Part shown: positions 3,900 through 9,587 of the stretch, one piece after another
Layout: each line of letters starts with the position of its first letter
How positions within the stretch are numbered: the stretch's first letter is position 1
From: Flavobacteriaceae bacterium UBA7302
GTDB taxonomy: Bacteria > Bacteroidota > Bacteroidia > Flavobacteriales > Flavobacteriaceae
Direction of reading: 5' to 3'
DNA: 64,000 nucleotides
Assembly: GCA_002471825.1 (NCBI GenBank)
Contig: DKQS01000011.1
Location: 42,712-106,711, forward strand
Made by a program: the position numbers and the translations under genes
The notes under the pieces: model-generated
Database searches by the model: none
Told to the model about the DNA's origin: nothing
The model's input: the letters and a program-made list of their open reading frames with translations, nothing else

Positions 3900-4622
3900 A
3901 TGATTAAGATTTTTAGAAATATGCGAAAAGACAAACTTGAAAAAGGCAAAACGAGCAGCTACCTCAAATATGCAATCGGAGAAATTGCTTTGGTGATGAT
4001 CGGTATTTTGTTGGCTGTTCAAATAAACAACTGGAACGAAGACCGCAAGGTGAAAAACGAATTGCAAAATATTTTAAAAACCATTGCTAGCGATTTACAA
4101 AGAGATACTATGGTTGCCAGCTCTGTAATTCAATTGTACGACACCATTGAAGCAAATAGTGTTCGAGTTGTCAATAAAGAAATCAATAAAAAGAACTATA
4201 AAAAGTATCCCATGCTGAGAAGTTTGGTAACCCTATACTCCCCTTATTCGGTCCAGACCAAAGGATATGACATGTTGAAAAGCTATTCCAATAAGAATGA
4301 AATTCAGAACGACACTTTGGTCTCAGCCATCAATCAATTTTATGTTCCATTTATCCAGCTCATAAATGACAATAATGAAATGGTTAAGAAAGAAGTATTG
4401 GAAAATATCGATGCATTCAAAGAGAAATCGTGGTTCGTAGACTGGACTCAAAACCGATTCACTCCAGAAATGGTTAACTACTTTACCCAAAGTGAAGATT
4501 ATCGAAAAAAAGTAGCCGCCAATTTGATTTTTGCCATAAGGAACCACAAGAATGTAATTGTGGCCTACAAAGGCCAGGCAGCAAGAATTATAAAGGTCAT
4601 TAAAGAAAAAACCGAAGACTAA
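3900..4622 (+). CDS. DUF6090-like membrane-anchored protein
   Basis: YLKYAIGEIALVMIGILLAVQINNWNE N-terminal signature common in Flavobacteriaceae. Confidence 0.8.
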   Translation: MIKIFRNMRKDKLEKGKTSSYLKYAIGEIALVMIGILLAVQINNWNEDRKVKNELQNILKTIASDLQRDTMVASSVIQLYDTIEANSVRVVNKEINKKNYKKYPMLRSLVTLYSPYSVQTKGYDMLKSYSNKNEIQNDTLVSAINQFYVPFIQLINDNNEMVKKEVLENIDAFKEKSWFVDWTQNRFTPEMVNYFTQSEDYRKKVAANLIFAIRNHKNVIVAYKGQAARIIKVIKEKTED

Positions 4623-4624
4623 TT

Positions 4625-4720
4625 ATGGGAGACGGATTTAATATCGTAATGATCATCGCCATCATTTTGTTTGCTCGATTGGCCATACGACTTCTTATCA
4701 ATTATAGAAAAAACAAATAA
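4625..4720 (+). CDS. Small 31-aa membrane peptide (not in ORF track)
   Basis: MGDGFNIVMIIAIILFARLAIRLLINYRKNK*; one TM helix with a basic tail; starts 2 nt after the upstream stop. Confidence 0.5.
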   Translation: MGDGFNIVMIIAIILFARLAIRLLINYRKNK

Positions 4721-4780
4721 CTTTAACATATTATTGCGTTTGTGATTGATTACATTTGTGGGTCTTTTTTGATAATTCAA

Positions 4781-5701
4781 ATGGTGGGTAAAAAGATCTT
4801 CGGAATTCTCTTCTTCTTATTGATCACGTTAAATGCACATGGTTATAAGAGAGTCCTTTACGTGGATAATTTTAGCAGTATTGTTGGCAACACCACCAGC
4901 GAAAACAAATTACTTTCCTTTGCAAAACGCTATGGCTTCAACTGCCTTCTTCTTTATGAATTAAACAAGGTGGATAAAAAGTATCCTTTAAAAGACAAAA
5001 GCACTAATGGAATTCTTGCAAAATTTATCTCCAAAGCTAAATCCACCTATAATATTGATGAAATTGGAGCCATTGGAGAAGCTTCTGAGTTTTTTATAGA
5101 TGTCATTCACCCCTATAACGAATCGAGAAACAACGTTTACGAGAAGTTCAACGTATATAACTTAGAATACGAGTATTGGTCTAAAAAGGCCTCTGGAGAG
5201 GATGGCTACTATTGCGAAAACTATTTGAAATACGACAATTATCAGTGCACCAGAGAGGGATCATTTAAGCACTTCATTGACGACTTAAAAGCCATGAAAT
5301 CTTTGGTAAGCCAAAAATCCTATAAAATTAAAATCGAGGCATTTTTAGGATGGTTTAAGGAAAATGAGATCAGAGAGATTAGCAAATACTCAGATCGCGT
5401 CATTTTGCAGAGCTATGACAAAAATCCGCGATTGTGTTATTCAAAAACCAAAAAGAGATTGAGTTTCGTTACCAGTCTCTCCTCAAAAATAGAAACCTCT
5501 GTCCTATTTTCATCAACCATGGAAAATATGGGGAAATGGCTCAAATACGATACGCTTGATAAAACCGAAAACATTTTCATGAGTGAAATGAAGGCAAAAA
5601 ATAGCGAGTTGGCCAAAAAATTAAAAATAGACAGTTTTGGTTACCATACTTATTCGTATTTAGAGAAATCATTAAGCTATTATGCCTATTCCCAGAATTA
5701 A
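4781..5701 (+). CDS. Secreted TIM-barrel / GH18-like hypothetical protein, paralog 1
   Basis: Signal peptide, LYVDNF, FNVYNLEYEYW and GYYCENYL. TACATTTG at 4751-4758 places the start at the ATG at 4781. Confidence 0.7.
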   Translation: MVGKKIFGILFFLLITLNAHGYKRVLYVDNFSSIVGNTTSENKLLSFAKRYGFNCLLLYELNKVDKKYPLKDKSTNGILAKFISKAKSTYNIDEIGAIGEASEFFIDVIHPYNESRNNVYEKFNVYNLEYEYWSKKASGEDGYYCENYLKYDNYQCTREGSFKHFIDDLKAMKSLVSQKSYKIKIEAFLGWFKENEIREISKYSDRVILQSYDKNPRLCYSKTKKRLSFVTSLSSKIETSVLFSSTMENMGKWLKYDTLDKTENIFMSEMKAKNSELAKKLKIDSFGYHTYSYLEKSLSYYAYSQN

Positions 5702-6024
5702 GTTTCAGGGTAAAATTTAATCGTTTTTTCGTCTGAGAATCACCAACTTGACGTTTTCCGGGAGTGCCAATTTTTGGCCATGCAAAAAGTAGGTTGTAAA
5801 ACCATCAAATCCTTCTAAAATTTACTTTCTAATTATCAGTTCATTACCCGTTTTTTATCCCCAAAAATGGGTATAAAAATCCCTAAAAATAGGTAGAAAA
5901 AAAGTTCACCATTTTACGGTATTGTGGGAATAGAACTTGTTTTCTAACTTAGAGTAGAGATTAAAATAAACCCCTAATCTTTTTAATAAAAACACATATT
6001 CAACAACTCCTAAAACCCCTAGTC

Positions 6025-6954
6025 ATGAAAAAGTTTTTAATTTTTATACTTATCTTATTATTAGCCATTCCATTGGTTGCTAACGATAGAAAGTTATACG
6101 TAGATAATTTCAAAAATGTTGTCGGAAACATTGAAGAAGAACACAAGCTCTTGTCATTTGCACAAACCTTAAATATCGAAGAATTGATTCTTTACGATTT
6201 AGATAAGATTCATCGTGTAAAGGACCTTACTAAAAGAAATACCAATGATGTTTTAGCCAGATTCATTAAAAAGGCAAAAACAATATACGACATGAAGCGA
6301 ATTACCGCTTCTGGTGAAAGTGCCAATTTCTTTATTGAAGTCATTCATAAATACAATAAATCTAGAACAGATTTAAGAGAACGATTTGATGTTTACAATC
6401 TAGAATTCGAATATTGGAACTCTTCCTCTACTTATGGAAACTATTATTGTGAAAATTATTTGAGAAAAAACGGTATTCCTTGTACAAAAGCCGGTGCTTT
6501 TAATTATTTCAAAGAATCGTTACTAGTATTACGATTGTTGTCCAAAGAATTGGAAAAGCCAACATTAGTACAAGCTTACATCGCCAAGTTCACCCCAGAA
6601 GAAGTGCGTAAAATTGAACCTTATGTAGATGTATTATTAGTGACTTGTTACGAAAGATCATTGACACGATTGAAATCTACAGCCATCAAAAATGTTGAGA
6701 ATTTAAGAAGATTGAAAAGCAATAATACCGAAATCTCAATTTTGATGTCAAGTGAACCAATATTTATGGGCGGATTCTTTAAGTTCAATTCATTGGCTTC
6801 AACAGAAGATAAAGTAGGAAACCATGTAAACAAACATGCAACCGTAAACGTGAACAACTTGAGTTACACTTATTACAACTACACAACATTAGCCAAGTCA
6901 TACGAGTACTTGTACTACATGAGAACAGGAAAGCGTTACGCTTACACAAAATAG
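6025..6954 (+). CDS. Secreted TIM-barrel / GH18-like hypothetical protein, paralog 2
   Basis: Signal peptide, LYVDNF, FDVYNLEFEYW, YYCENYL and SSEPIFMGG. Confidence 0.7.
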   Translation: MKKFLIFILILLLAIPLVANDRKLYVDNFKNVVGNIEEEHKLLSFAQTLNIEELILYDLDKIHRVKDLTKRNTNDVLARFIKKAKTIYDMKRITASGESANFFIEVIHKYNKSRTDLRERFDVYNLEFEYWNSSSTYGNYYCENYLRKNGIPCTKAGAFNYFKESLLVLRLLSKELEKPTLVQAYIAKFTPEEVRKIEPYVDVLLVTCYERSLTRLKSTAIKNVENLRRLKSNNTEISILMSSEPIFMGGFFKFNSLASTEDKVGNHVNKHATVNVNNLSYTYYNYTTLAKSYEYLYYMRTGKRYAYTK

Positions 6955-6976
6955 GATAATGTGTTTAAAGTGAGAT

Positions 6977-7084
6977 AAGTTGGTTTTGAATTCACTATTT
7001 GAATGAATTTAAGCAAAAGGACAGACGTAGATTAAAACCCTTATGATTGTATAAATATTGATCCCTAAAATTCAAAACCAACTT
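6977..7084 (+). repeat. Long hairpin with perfect 16-bp terminal inverted repeat
   Basis: AAGTTGGTTTTGAATT (6977-6992) and AATTCAAAACCAACTT (7069-7084). Confidence 0.8.
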
Positions 7085-7128
7085 TCTTTTTTGATCACAA
7101 AGTCAAAAAAACAACCAACAAAAAGTTA

Positions 7129-7157
7129 AAAGCTGAGTTAATTCTCAGCTTTTTTTA
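7129..7157 (+). terminator. Intrinsic terminator
   Basis: AAAAGCTGAG-ttaatt-CTCAGCTTTTTTT. Confidence 0.8.
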
Positions 7158-7440
7158 TGTCAAAAATCTGCCGTTTTTAGGAATTTTATGATTGAAAAAA
7201 CGCTGAGAATTGATCCAAAATCACCAAAAATTATATTCGAATTTGATTTTTTTTTTAATTTTTTTTGCCGCGATACCGAATTTATGAAAGCACCCCATTT
7301 TACAGGGGAAATGAAAATATTTTGAAATTGAATATTTCTCTAAAAGGCTCGCTTTTAACCCATTAAAAGGAGGCCTTATTTTTTTTATTCGTTTAATTTT
7401 CTATAATTTTGACTCGTAATTTATAATAATCCCCCTAATC

Positions 7441-8412
7441 ATGAAAAGGACAATCCCCCAGATCCTAGTCATAGCTGTTATTGTTATTTTCCAAATTCAA
7501 CAGCTGTCAGCACAACGAATTTTATACGTAGATCAATTTTATCAGATTCTCGGTGATGAAGATAAAGAAGAGAACCTATTGAATTTTACCAAAGAAAATG
7601 GGTTTGATAAGATTATACTTTACGATCTACACAAGATCAACCGAGACTTTCCTTTAGCAGATGTTCGTAAAAACGGGATTCTTGCCAATTTCATTTCAAA
7701 CGCGAAACTGAAGTACGGAATCAAAGAAGTGAGTGGCTCTGGTGAAAACGGTGAGTTTTTTATCAATGCCATCGATGCTTACAATCGTTCTAGAACCAAA
7801 GCATCAGAAAAATTTGATGCTTACAACCTCGAGTACGAGTACTGGAAGAAGGAAGACTCTTCTTACGGCGGATACTATTGCGAGAACTACCTGGATAAAT
7901 TCGGAAGAAAATGCAACCGGCAGGAATCCTTTGAGTTCTACATCAATTCATTGGCTACCATGAAAAAATTGGCCAGTCAGAACAAGCACAAGGTGAAAAT
8001 TGAAGCCTATGTGGGGAAGTTCACCAAATCTGAAGTAGCCAGAATATCAAAATATGTAGATCGCTTGCTGGTACATGTTTATGTAAATCATCCCAAAAAA
8101 GGATTTTTCTATGCCAATAAGAGATTGAAATACCTATCAGAGTTAAAGAAAAAACCCAAAGTTTCTATCATCTATTCGTCTGAAATCCTATTCATGGGAG
8201 GATGGTTTAAATATAACTCCTTGAAAAAAGCAGAGAGTATTTTTGTAAAAACCATGAAGAACGAAAACCAAAGTTTGATGAAACAGATCAACTTTACCAA
8301 TTTCACCTACTACAATTACAACTACTTGTCAAAGTCGATTGACTTCTATGCAACAGCTAGTGCTAATAGCAACCAATCTGATGACAATACTATTGTTAGT
8401 GGTTTGAAATAA
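7441..8412 (+). CDS. Secreted TIM-barrel / GH18-like hypothetical protein, paralog 3
   Basis: Signal peptide, LYVDQF, FDAYNLEYEYW, GYYCENYL and SSEILFMGG. TAATTTTG promoter element at 7404-7411. Confidence 0.7.
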   Translation: MKRTIPQILVIAVIVIFQIQQLSAQRILYVDQFYQILGDEDKEENLLNFTKENGFDKIILYDLHKINRDFPLADVRKNGILANFISNAKLKYGIKEVSGSGENGEFFINAIDAYNRSRTKASEKFDAYNLEYEYWKKEDSSYGGYYCENYLDKFGRKCNRQESFEFYINSLATMKKLASQNKHKVKIEAYVGKFTKSEVARISKYVDRLLVHVYVNHPKKGFFYANKRLKYLSELKKKPKVSIIYSSEILFMGGWFKYNSLKKAESIFVKTMKNENQSLMKQINFTNFTYYNYNYLSKSIDFYATASANSNQSDDNTIVSGLK

Positions 8413-8458
8413 AACGAATCACAAGAATTAAACTAAAGATAAAAATTAATAACAATAC

Positions 8459-8571
8459 AAAATCTACATGTTGAGGTTAATGCACATCCCCCATTTACCC
8501 TGAATTGGAAATTACAAAAACCGAGCAGTAGGTAAGCCCCTAAATTACCTATCTCCTCAACATTAGATTTT
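8459..8571 (+). ncRNA. Structured element copy 1 (candidate sRNA or 3'-UTR element)
   Basis: Ends pair (AAAATCTAcATGTTGAGG / CCTCAACATTAGATTTT). Inner 8-bp hairpin has loop GCCCCTAAA. Homologous to copy 2. Confidence 0.55.
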
Positions 8572-8688
8572 TATAAACCGTAAAAATTGAAATAAATATA
8601 GATAATACTATTTGTGTAAGAAGTAAAGCTACAAAACCCCCTAAAACAAGCTGAGTCCTTTGAGATTCTCAATATTAAAGTGACTTCC

Positions 8689-8802
8689 AAATCTAATTGT
8701 TGAGGTTAATGCGAACCCCTTTACCCTTTATTATAAATTACACAAATATTCACAGCAGTAGGTATCCCCCTAAAAAGTGCCTATCGCCTCAACATTAGAT
8801 TT
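8689..8802 (+). ncRNA. Structured element copy 2 (candidate sRNA)
   Basis: Same architecture as copy 1; inner hairpin loop CCCCCTAAAAA; stem differences are G-U compatible. Confidence 0.55.
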
Positions 8803-8862
8803 TAGTTAAAATTTTGCAAAACAGCGTGTTAGACTTTAATTTTTGGACATTTTTTCGTAATT

Positions 8863-8891
8863 TGTAACAAAACCTCCTAATCTTCAGTCTT
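8863..8891 (+). promoter_or_regulatory. Putative ECF-type promoter TGTAAC-N17-AGTCTT
   Basis: Same spacing as TGTAAC-N17-CGTCTA at 17083-17111. Confidence 0.4.
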
Positions 8892-8994
8892 TTTAATACA
8901 ACCCACCTCTAAACCAAATTTCTTGGATCGAAAGCATACAGCTTTTGTAATCACCAGAAATTAGATTTTATGTTTAACCAAAATACCATTAAAG

Positions 8995-9150
8995 ATGAAG
9001 AAATTTTTATTGCAAAAATTAGCTCAGTTAATCGATAGGCTTCCCCAAGGAGAAGAGAGAAAAGAAGCACTAAAAGATTGGTTGGAACTAAAGCTTTCCG
9101 AGGCAAACAGCTCTCTTTTAACCCTTATGAAGAATAAATATCAGTTCTAA
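8995..9150 (+). CDS. Small 51-aa hypothetical protein (not in ORF track)
   Basis: MKKFLLQKLAQLIDRLPQGEERKEALKDWLELKLSEANSSLLTLMKNKYQF*; A-rich start context; fills an otherwise empty gap. Confidence 0.65.
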   Translation: MKKFLLQKLAQLIDRLPQGEERKEALKDWLELKLSEANSSLLTLMKNKYQF

Positions 9151-9176
9151 TATAATGGATGGAAGCACCTACGACG

Positions 9177-9587
9177 TTAACCTTCGAACGAGACAAAATT
9201 ACGAGGTGTCTCGTAAAGGGTGATTTTTATATCTAAGTGGTCAGCAATAACCTTTCGGAGTTTGTTGTAGATAACCACACAAATATTCTCTGCTGTAGGA
9301 ATCAAATCCTTAAATTCTTCTACTTCCACATTCAAATTCTTGTGGTCGAAAGGTTCCTCCACCTCTTGTTTTATCAACTCCTTTAATTTTCCTAAATCAT
9401 ATACATACCCCGTTTCCTGGTCTATTTCACCAGTCAACGATACGATTAATTCGTAATTGTGCCCGTGATAATGAGGATTACTGCATTTACTGAAAACATC
9501 AAAGTTTTTGTCGTCACTCCAATCCTTTCTATAAATTCTGTGGGCCGCATTAAAATGGGCTTTTCGATGTACGGTAACTCTAGGCAT
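9177..9587 (-). CDS. 6-pyruvoyl-tetrahydropterin synthase / QueD family protein
   Basis: FNAAHR, CSNPHYHGHNY, DHKNLN, PTAENI and LYETPRN motifs. Confidence 0.9.
   Translation of the reverse strand: MPRVTVHRKAHFNAAHRIYRKDWSDDKNFDVFSKCSNPHYHGHNYELIVSLTGEIDQETGYVYDLGKLKELIKQEVEEPFDHKNLNVEVEEFKDLIPTAENICVVIYNKLRKVIADHLDIKITLYETPRNFVSFEG

Follow-up and report, generated by a model that had tools for sequence, protein, structure and literature searches.

A secreted (beta/alpha)8-barrel family with a strand-4 Glu-x-Glu motif, encoded by tandem paralogs in a marine flavobacterium, is a candidate new family of carbohydrate-active enzymes

Introduction

Much of the algal polysaccharide that phytoplankton blooms release is processed by marine Flavobacteriia such as Polaribacter. 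A function has yet to be assigned to many of their abundant secreted proteins. A common fold of secreted enzymes is the triosephosphate isomerase (TIM) barrel, or (beta/alpha)8 barrel, in which the active site lies at the C-terminal ends of the strands. Cwp19 of Clostridioides difficile is a weak peptidoglycan hydrolase in which a Tyr at the C-terminus of strand 6 is conserved (PMC5765458). The endo-fucanases of glycoside hydrolase (GH) family GH168 have solved structures, the catalytic residues D172 and E243, and a C-terminal three-strand subdomain (PMC12534559); in these respects they are unlike the family described here. We analyzed three tandem genes for secreted proteins in a 64,000-nucleotide (nt) stretch of DNA of Flavobacteriaceae bacterium UBA7302, a marine Polaribacter (contig DKQS01000011.1, positions 42,712 to 106,711), hereafter the window, in which all coordinates without a further label are given. 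Our best explanation, in which our confidence is slightly better than even, is that the encoded proteins belong to an undescribed secreted (beta/alpha)8 family whose members, most likely carbohydrate-active hydrolases, would be the founders of a new glycoside-hydrolase-like family.

Results

Three secreted paralogs are predicted to fold as TIM barrels

The three open reading frames (ORFs) lie on the forward strand at 4781-5701 (paralog 1, P0001), 6025-6954 (paralog 2, P0002) and 7441-8412 (paralog 3, P0003), and encode 306, 309 and 323 amino acids (aa), respectively. An initial annotation, made from the sequence alone, had described them as diverged, secreted paralogs with a common set of motifs. 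This description is borne out: BLASTP aligned the three proteins end to end with no or few gaps, in agreement with MAFFT, at pairwise identities of 43%, 39% and 37% (E 6e-89, 3e-70 and 6e-60), and the motifs are present and invariant in all three (LYVD, YxL, LAxFI..AK, GE, YN.SR, YNLExEYW, YYCENYL-x6-C, MG and KS in the MAFFT alignment). The count of three holds for the window; the genome holds four, since a fourth, canonical paralog of 308 aa is encoded on another contig (G000:C4:513758-514660; L002 1483-2409).

The N-termini of paralogs 1-3 carry a positive charge, followed by a hydrophobic core and a small-x-small cleavage site. The predicted signal peptides span approximately residues 1-21 of paralog 1 (4781-4843, forward strand), 1-19 of paralog 2 (6025-6081, forward) and 1-24 of paralog 3 (7441-7512, forward), with predicted cleavage at NAHG/YK, LVA/ND and LSA/QR, and the barrel starts right after the cleavage site. 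The mature proteins are of about 34 kDa, with an isoelectric point of 9.0-9.3 and an aromatic content of 14-16%. All three lack a lipobox Cys, and none matched the Pfam model of the C-terminal sorting domain (CTD) of the type IX secretion system (T9SS; Por_Secre_tail, PF18962). The earlier statement that the window copies have neither feature is thus correct, and a periplasmic location can fairly be inferred.

AlphaFold2 models were computed for paralog 3 (62-sequence alignment; predicted local distance difference test score, pLDDT, 93.6; predicted template modelling score, pTM, 0.89) and for mature paralog 2 (103-sequence alignment; pLDDT 96.3, pTM 0.93). Both models consist of eight alternating strand-helix units, that is, a (beta/alpha)8 TIM barrel. 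In the paralog 3 model, strands 1-4 comprise residues 25-30, 55-60, 96-101 and 127-130, and strands 5-8 comprise residues 186-191, 208-212, 240-246 and 284-291. The motif FDAYNLEYEYW (residues 125-135; 7813-7845, forward strand) covers strand 4 and the residues directly after it, at the C-terminal end of the strand; its equivalents in paralogs 1 and 2 lie at 5147-5179 and 6385-6417, respectively, both on the forward strand. The proposal that these proteins are TIM barrels with an acidic motif at the end of strand 4 is therefore upheld by both models.

The motif contains two Glu residues, E131 (7831-7833, forward) and E133 (7837-7839, forward). Together with W135, they are among the conserved residues at or near the C-terminal ends of the strands, which also include Y29 (strand 1), Y61 (strand 2), E102 (strand 3), E188 and Y190 (strand 5), Y214 (strand 6), and W/Y290 and Y293 (strand 8). 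E102 (7744-7746, forward) is the first residue past strand 3 and belongs to the GE motif, while E188 (8002-8004, forward) lies inside strand 5 in an ExYxG motif and is replaced by Gln in paralog 2. A Cys pair, C147 and C158 (7879-7914, forward), is located in a helix-loop insert that follows strand 4.

A large family shares the strand-4 motif

A hidden Markov model (HMM) search over 1.84 billion representative proteins, clustered at 50% identity, retrieved 810 clusters at E<1e-3 and 214 at E<1e-30. The named close homologues are all Polaribacter entries labelled as hypothetical proteins, and searching the literature by the locus tags of named homologues turned up no paper. Conservation was counted in 80 diverse members that share 23-42% identity with paralog 3, whose numbering is used throughout and which itself has every consensus residue. 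E131 was found in 79/80, E133 in 78/80, W135 in 80/80, E102 in 78/80 and E188 in 76/80 of these members. Position 290 was Trp or Tyr in all 80, and a Trp on strand 8 was present in 60/80. High counts were also obtained for Y29 (73/80), Y61 (79/80), Y114 (72/80), N115 (73/80), Y190 and G192 (78/80 each), D207 (75/80), Y214 (77/80), R228 (76/80), W255 (73/80) and Y293 (74/80), while H212, in the H-x-Y motif of strand 6, was present in 61/80. E248 of strand 7 was present in only 51/80, the remainder having Arg, Thr, Gly or Gln, with Arg throughout one coherent subfamily. E102, E131 and E133 were invariant in the four paralogs and in 62/62 close relatives. Each Cys of the pair was conserved in 74/80; both were present in 74/80, neither in 6/80 and a single one in 0/80. 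This strict coupling argues for a disulfide, and C147-C158 is probably a disulfide within the insert after strand 4.

Other genomes contain distant subfamilies, made up of lipoprotein-type copies, among them a tandem triple, and one copy with a CTD. In these, the strand-4 ExE(F/Y)(W/Y)N is kept, and E102 and the Cys pair are absent; E188 is absent from the lipoprotein forms as well. As the strand-4 ExE alone is kept in these distant subfamilies, it is, judged by sequence, the common core of all subfamilies.

By Pfam scan, Por_Secre_tail was found in 45/80 diverse members and CHU_C at the end of three, and by these predicted sorting domains the wider family is for the most part T9SS cargo. In multidomain members, the barrel is joined to fn3, PKD, FG-GAP, dockerin, LRR and F5/8-type-C domains. 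One protein (P0211) combines the barrel with GH9, CelD_N and a Pel9A-like beta-helix; another (P0248) combines it with two CBM6 and two CBM35 carbohydrate-binding modules (CBMs), Big_7, PKD and a CTD. Right-handed beta-helix domains were also found in P0201, P0186 and P0255. Because of the fusions to GH9, CBM6, CBM35 and beta-helix domains, a carbohydrate-active role is suggested. The conserved Tyr and Trp residues at the strand ends, as in sugar-binding clefts, were counted toward the same role.

Membership of GH18 or other tested families is not supported

The initial annotation had likened the acidic motif to that of GH18. Scans of the three window proteins against Pfam and NCBIfam at E<=10 gave noise only, and a Pfam scan of the 80 diverse members at E<=1 gave no TIM-barrel or GH family; the GH18 model (PF00704) was matched in neither set at these thresholds. 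Sequence searches of the PDB with three family profiles returned nothing for the barrel, one profile matching T9SS tails only. Next, the family was compared by hhalign with profiles built from genome matches of GH18 (28 sequences), GHL10 (29), GH114 (5), GH5 (11) and GH20 (9). The probability was 0.8-1.1% for GH18 (P 0.05-0.07), 0.7-0.9% over 16-17 columns for GHL10, 0.1-0.3% for GH5 (PF00150) and 3.8-5.7%, over 24 columns only, for GH20 (PF00728). A relation to GH114 (PF03537), also raised earlier, found no backing, with no Pfam match and 0.3-0.5% against a thin profile of five sequences. In the controls, GH18 against GHL10 scored 63.8%, and the true clan mates GH18 and GH20 scored just 0.7% against each other. 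Therefore, the hhalign test rejects family membership, not clan-level kinship.

Foldseek searches of the PDB with both models returned only generic TIM barrels, with E around 1e-5 and TM-scores of 0.4-0.5. The named matches were SfnG/SsuD/MsuD monooxygenases, F420 oxidoreductases, aldolases, dihydrodipicolinate synthase (DHDPS) and phosphoenolpyruvate (PEP)-mutase-type lyases. The highest TM-score for both models was that of Cwp19, a GHL10 protein (0.51 and 0.56-0.57; root-mean-square deviation 6-9 Å). No GH18 structure was among the top 50 for the paralog 3 model; for the paralog 2 model, the only one in the top 50 was EndoS (4nuy), at rank 37 with a TM-score of 0.40. The structural check proposed with the first description thus found the TIM barrel, but GH18 is not among its close structural neighbours.

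Membership in GH18 is consequently rejected: no HMM matched, hhalign gave about 1% and the closest structures are not GH18. The motif itself departs from the DxxDxDxE of GH18, reading D-x-x-N-x-E-x-E, with the terminal Glu kept, Glu at -2 and Asn at -4. What survives of the GH18-like motif is its position on strand 4 and the essentially invariant E131 and E133; descent from GH18 is not supported. Clan GH-A (4/7) is rejected as well, as E248 is kept too poorly for its 4/7 catalytic pair and is Arg in a whole subfamily. GH168 is rejected since its solved structures were matched neither by the PDB profile searches at E<=10 nor among the listed Foldseek matches. The recent marine families GH174 and GH187 are rejected because they have beta-sheet folds (PMC12534559).

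Since the hhalign test leaves clan-level kinship standing, we considered whether the family could be a remote relative or a functional analogue of clan GH-K (GH18, GH20, GH85) that acts by substrate-assisted catalysis on a polymer of N-acetylated sugars. In that case, E133 would supply the acid function and E131 would act on the acetamido group by polarising it, in the manner of D142 in chitinase B, with assistance from Y214 of strand 6. The register D126-x-x-N129-x-E131-x-E133 equals D-x-x-D-x-D-x-E at each position, and the hhalign alignment to GH18 was the sole long one (112-124 columns). It kept the topological register and set motif on motif, pairing strand 3 with SxGG, FDAYNLEYE with FDGIDIDWE, and Y214 with the Tyr of the strand-6 MxYD. 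That ExE is the only acidic pair in all subfamilies would be expected if no enzyme nucleophile were needed. Moreover, the top structural match, Cwp19, cleaves peptidoglycan (PMC5765458), and its family is linked to GH18 by the high control score. Some neighbourhoods, described below, also fit, one distant homologue lying in a sialic-acid locus and three beside genes for a chitin-synthase-like glycosyltransferase of family GT2 and a UDP-glucose dehydrogenase. However, the hhalign score for GH18 is no better than that for GHL10, the GH18 HMM is unmatched and EndoS, at rank 37, is the only GH18 structure in the top 50 of either search. E102 and E188, kept in the core family, have no GH18 counterpart, the suggestive genes do not share operons with the homologues, and the genome of the bacterium itself contains two genes for GH20 and none for GH18. 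We regard this kinship or analogy as unlikely, though it is the foremost of the alternatives.

The pattern of conserved acids bears on another alternative, namely that the proteins are metal-dependent, non-glycosidic enzymes (lyases, esterases, phosphodiesterases or epimerases) acting on a glycan or another extracellular substrate. Here, E102, E131 or E133, and E188 would hold Ca2+ or Mg2+, like the ligands on strands 3-5 of the enolase superfamily. Four near-invariant Glu residues on three adjacent strands and the lack of a conserved strand-7 nucleophile would suit such a site. So would the metal-binding barrels of the PEP-mutase/isocitrate-lyase, class II aldolase and homocitrate synthase types among the Foldseek matches, and the repeated fusion or adjacency to pectate-lyase-type right-handed beta-helix domains. 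Yet these structural matches are only at the generic TIM-barrel level, and both the absence of E102 and E188 from distant subfamilies and the Gln in place of E188 in the paralog-2 clade would be odd for metal ligands. We also know of no TIM-barrel polysaccharide lyase. Taken together, we judge a metal-dependent enzyme to be improbable.

Paralogs are old and differ in transcription

In a maximum-likelihood tree, the four paralogs fell into four separate supported clades (SH-like approximate likelihood ratio test, SH-aLRT, 97, 100, 96 and 99, with 97 for that of paralog 1), every one of which holds orthologues from other genomes or metagenomes. Therefore, the duplications took place long ago and the copies have been retained since. 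Of the copies, paralog 2 has diverged the most: its clade sits on a long branch, with the changes E188Q, G192A and R208V fixed. Y190F and E248T/R mark the paralog-1 clade (E248T in paralog 1 itself), and paralogs 3 and 4 are canonical. The distribution of the family is patchy: it was found in 8/36 other genomes of the genus, mostly as tandem pairs, and in 3/400 other genomes sampled across the phylum, with few candidates scored per genome. Several copies in four relatives (G008, G010, G012 and G025) carry one to five in-frame stops; some lineages are therefore losing the family.

Four marine metatranscriptome runs contain the region, and their RNA contigs were compared. The contigs cover genes 1, 2 and 3 separately, with gaps in the spacers. 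By contig depth, a crude measure, gene 3 stood at 440-630 in run X4 versus about 6 for genes 1 and 2, at 28.6 versus 13.1 and 4.7 in run X5, and at 12.4 versus 5.3 and about 2 in run X6. Paralog 3 was thus by far the most transcribed copy and paralog 2 had the lowest RNA depth. The 5' ends of the gene-3 contigs lie at 7247, 7247, 7251 and 7268 in the four runs, just downstream of a promoter-like TTGATC-16-TATATT at 7210-7237 (forward strand), and the contigs extend to approximately 8600-8682. After gene 2, a hairpin with a T-run that resembles an intrinsic terminator (7128-7153, forward) separates genes 2 and 3, and in run X4 the RNA depth dropped to 0.3-2.9 across 6755-7148. Bacteroidota-type -7 boxes were found by pattern match at 4751-4758 (TACATTTG, forward), 23 nt ahead of the start of gene 1, and at 7404 (TAATTTTG, forward), ahead of gene 3. 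The separate RNA contigs of differing depth, the terminator and the -7 boxes support the transcription of genes 1-3 as separate units, as the initial annotation had suggested, with the caveat that DNA may contaminate the RNA runs. A scan for the sigma-70 consensus gave 14 sites versus 18.9 expected, which is not above chance, and an Rfam scan of 4500-9300 gave nothing real. The predicted start of gene 1 is ATG 4781 rather than GTG 4742 further upstream, since the -7 box at 4751 falls inside the longer reading.

Several further features were observed around these genes. A C-rich leader right before the start codon is common to gene 2 (6011-6031, TAAAACCCCTAGTCATGAAAA) and gene 3 (7427-7447, TAATCCCCCTAATCATGAAAA). 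One low-depth RNA contig of run X4 skips 195 nt (7266 to 7462), comprising most of the gene-3 leader and the start codon; the short side of this joint is only 20 nt, and the skip may be an assembly artefact or a strain variant. Following paralog 3, there are two direct copies of an element of about 130 nt, at 8442-8571 and 8671-8803, with terminal inverted ends (TGTTGAGG...CCTCAACA); the gene-3 RNA contigs pass through the first copy.

Paralog divergence and transcription also bear on the possibility that these are non-catalytic periplasmic proteins, carbohydrate-binding or structural, that derive from an enzyme barrel. Concanavalin B, narbonin and the chitinase-like lectins, which derive from GH18, provide the model. 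The high transcription of paralog 3, the absence of partner genes and the substitutions in paralogs 1 and 2 at otherwise conserved positions are consistent with such a role. Nevertheless, E102, E131 and E133 are invariant across the paralogs and their close relatives, and inactive derivatives usually lose residues of this kind; the GH9 and CBM fusions argue for a catalytic module as well, binding being already supplied by the CBMs. A non-catalytic role is, in our estimation, very improbable, the least likely of the explanations considered.

Gene neighbourhoods hint at N-acetylated sugars in distant homologues

Neighbourhoods were compared in P. porphyrae, P. litorisediminis, four other isolate genomes and four metagenome contigs, and no consistent polysaccharide utilisation locus or exopolysaccharide operon was found among them. 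P. porphyrae has two tandem copies at the site equivalent to that of the window, in the order HAD, KdsB, DUF5670, DUF6090, a small ORF, the copies, and then PTPS and NUDIX. The single copy of P. litorisediminis adjoins a restriction-modification system, and housekeeping genes are the neighbours in the metagenome contigs and in two isolate genomes. The fourth paralog of the present genome is flanked by a polyprenyl synthetase gene and a gene for a large beta-propeller-type (TolB/tricorn-like) protein. Between a DUF6090-like gene (3900-4622) and paralog 1, the window contains a 31-codon ORF (MGDGFNIVMIIAIILFARLAIRLLINYRKNK, 4626-4721, forward) for a small hydrophobic peptide; at the matching position, P. 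porphyrae has a called gene of 34 aa (L085 8783-8887).

Two settings of distant homologues are more suggestive. A CTD-bearing homologue of 511 aa (L112, G437:C11, 8710-10245) lies inside a sialic-acid utilisation locus, with a NanM-transporter fusion, a GntR regulator, a NanA-like lyase, a BNR sialidase and SusC/SusD as neighbours; it also adjoins an IS1595-type transposase gene. In the same genus as the window, a tandem triple of lipoproteins of 334-336 aa (L114, G006:C1, 8353-11650), which keeps only the strand-4 ExEFWN core, is convergent to a cluster encoding the chitin-synthase-like GT2, UDP-glucose dehydrogenase, TackOD1 and DUF4114 proteins, and has on its other side the gene for an adhesin of 2460 aa. 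Both settings involve N-acetylated sugars, which fits the idea in the initial annotation of a polymer that contains N-acetylglucosamine (GlcNAc). As these hints are limited to two distant homologues' settings, a GlcNAc-containing polymer as substrate is a guess.

Discussion

The domain fusions, the aromatic strand ends and the invariant acids favour carbohydrate-active hydrolases as the explanation of this family, and several points weigh against it. We know of no activity, ligand or substrate for any family member. Across Pfam, NCBIfam, the PDB profile searches and hhalign, no glycoside hydrolase family is significantly linked to these proteins by sequence or profile. Ranked by E-value, the best Foldseek matches are oxidoreductases that depend on flavin or F420, aldolases and lyases. 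The neighbourhoods, mostly housekeeping, name no substrate. The depth of RNA contigs measures expression crudely, and DNA may be present in the RNA runs. A more specific form of the hydrolase explanation is put forward only tentatively: a new GH family, possibly a GH-K-like, substrate-assisted branch, that has a Glu-x-Glu core on strand 4 and no strand-7 nucleophile, and whose periplasmic paralog 3 is strongly transcribed.

If the proteins are carbohydrate-active hydrolases, the catalytic centre would be the strand-4 pair E131-x-E133, the sole acidic pair in all subfamilies, and in the core family E102 and E188 may be its partner or positioning carboxylates. Sugar rings would be stacked upon by the ring of Tyr and Trp residues, and the C147-C158 disulfide would staple a lid over the site. 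The Polaribacter copies may have lost the T9SS tail and would thus stay in the periplasm, where they could act on imported oligosaccharides or on a glycan of the cell envelope. The paralogs may have diverged in specificity, paralog 2 by E188Q and paralog 1 by E248T, with paralogs 3 and 4 remaining canonical. Of the four, paralog 3 seems to do most of the work.

The family, with some 810 clusters at 50% identity that have no Pfam, NCBIfam or PDB coverage, is a candidate new family of carbohydrate-active enzymes. It should be easily expressed, the mature protein being of 34 kDa with one probable disulfide, and one copy is strong in seawater metatranscriptomes. The four long-maintained paralogs, with clade-specific changes at putative active-site positions, form a natural set for mapping specificity. 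If the family is indeed a new GH family, paralog 3 would be among the more strongly transcribed genes of a bloom-associated Polaribacter, and would point to an unrecognised step in marine glycan turnover or in the remodelling of the cell's own envelope glycans.

Compared with known systems, the family resembles GH18 in its acidic ladder on strand 4, which is in the same register (DxxDxDxE in GH18 versus DxxNxExE here), in the small-Gly motif on strand 3, in the Tyr on strand 6 and in the aromatic residue on strand 8. It differs in having Glu at both inner Asp positions, in lacking an Asp after the strand-6 Tyr and in its additional conserved E102 and E188. Clan GH-A, for example GH5, likewise has Asn and Glu on strand 4, H-x-Y on strand 6 and a Trp on strand 8, but the motif of the window family is N-x-E rather than N-E. 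Cwp19 of C. difficile (functional region, PDB 5oq2/5oq3; PF02638, GHL10) is also a secreted (beta/alpha)8 barrel and has in common with the window family the Tyr at the C-terminus of strand 6. However, it lacks the ExE motif, the Glu residues of strands 3 and 5 and the Cys pair, it carries cell-wall-binding repeats in place of a T9SS tail, and there is no sequence or profile relation between the two (PF02638 was unmatched). The GH168 endo-fucanases of marine Flavobacteriia are, like the family described here, secreted TIM barrels of marine Bacteroidota that have been recognised only recently.

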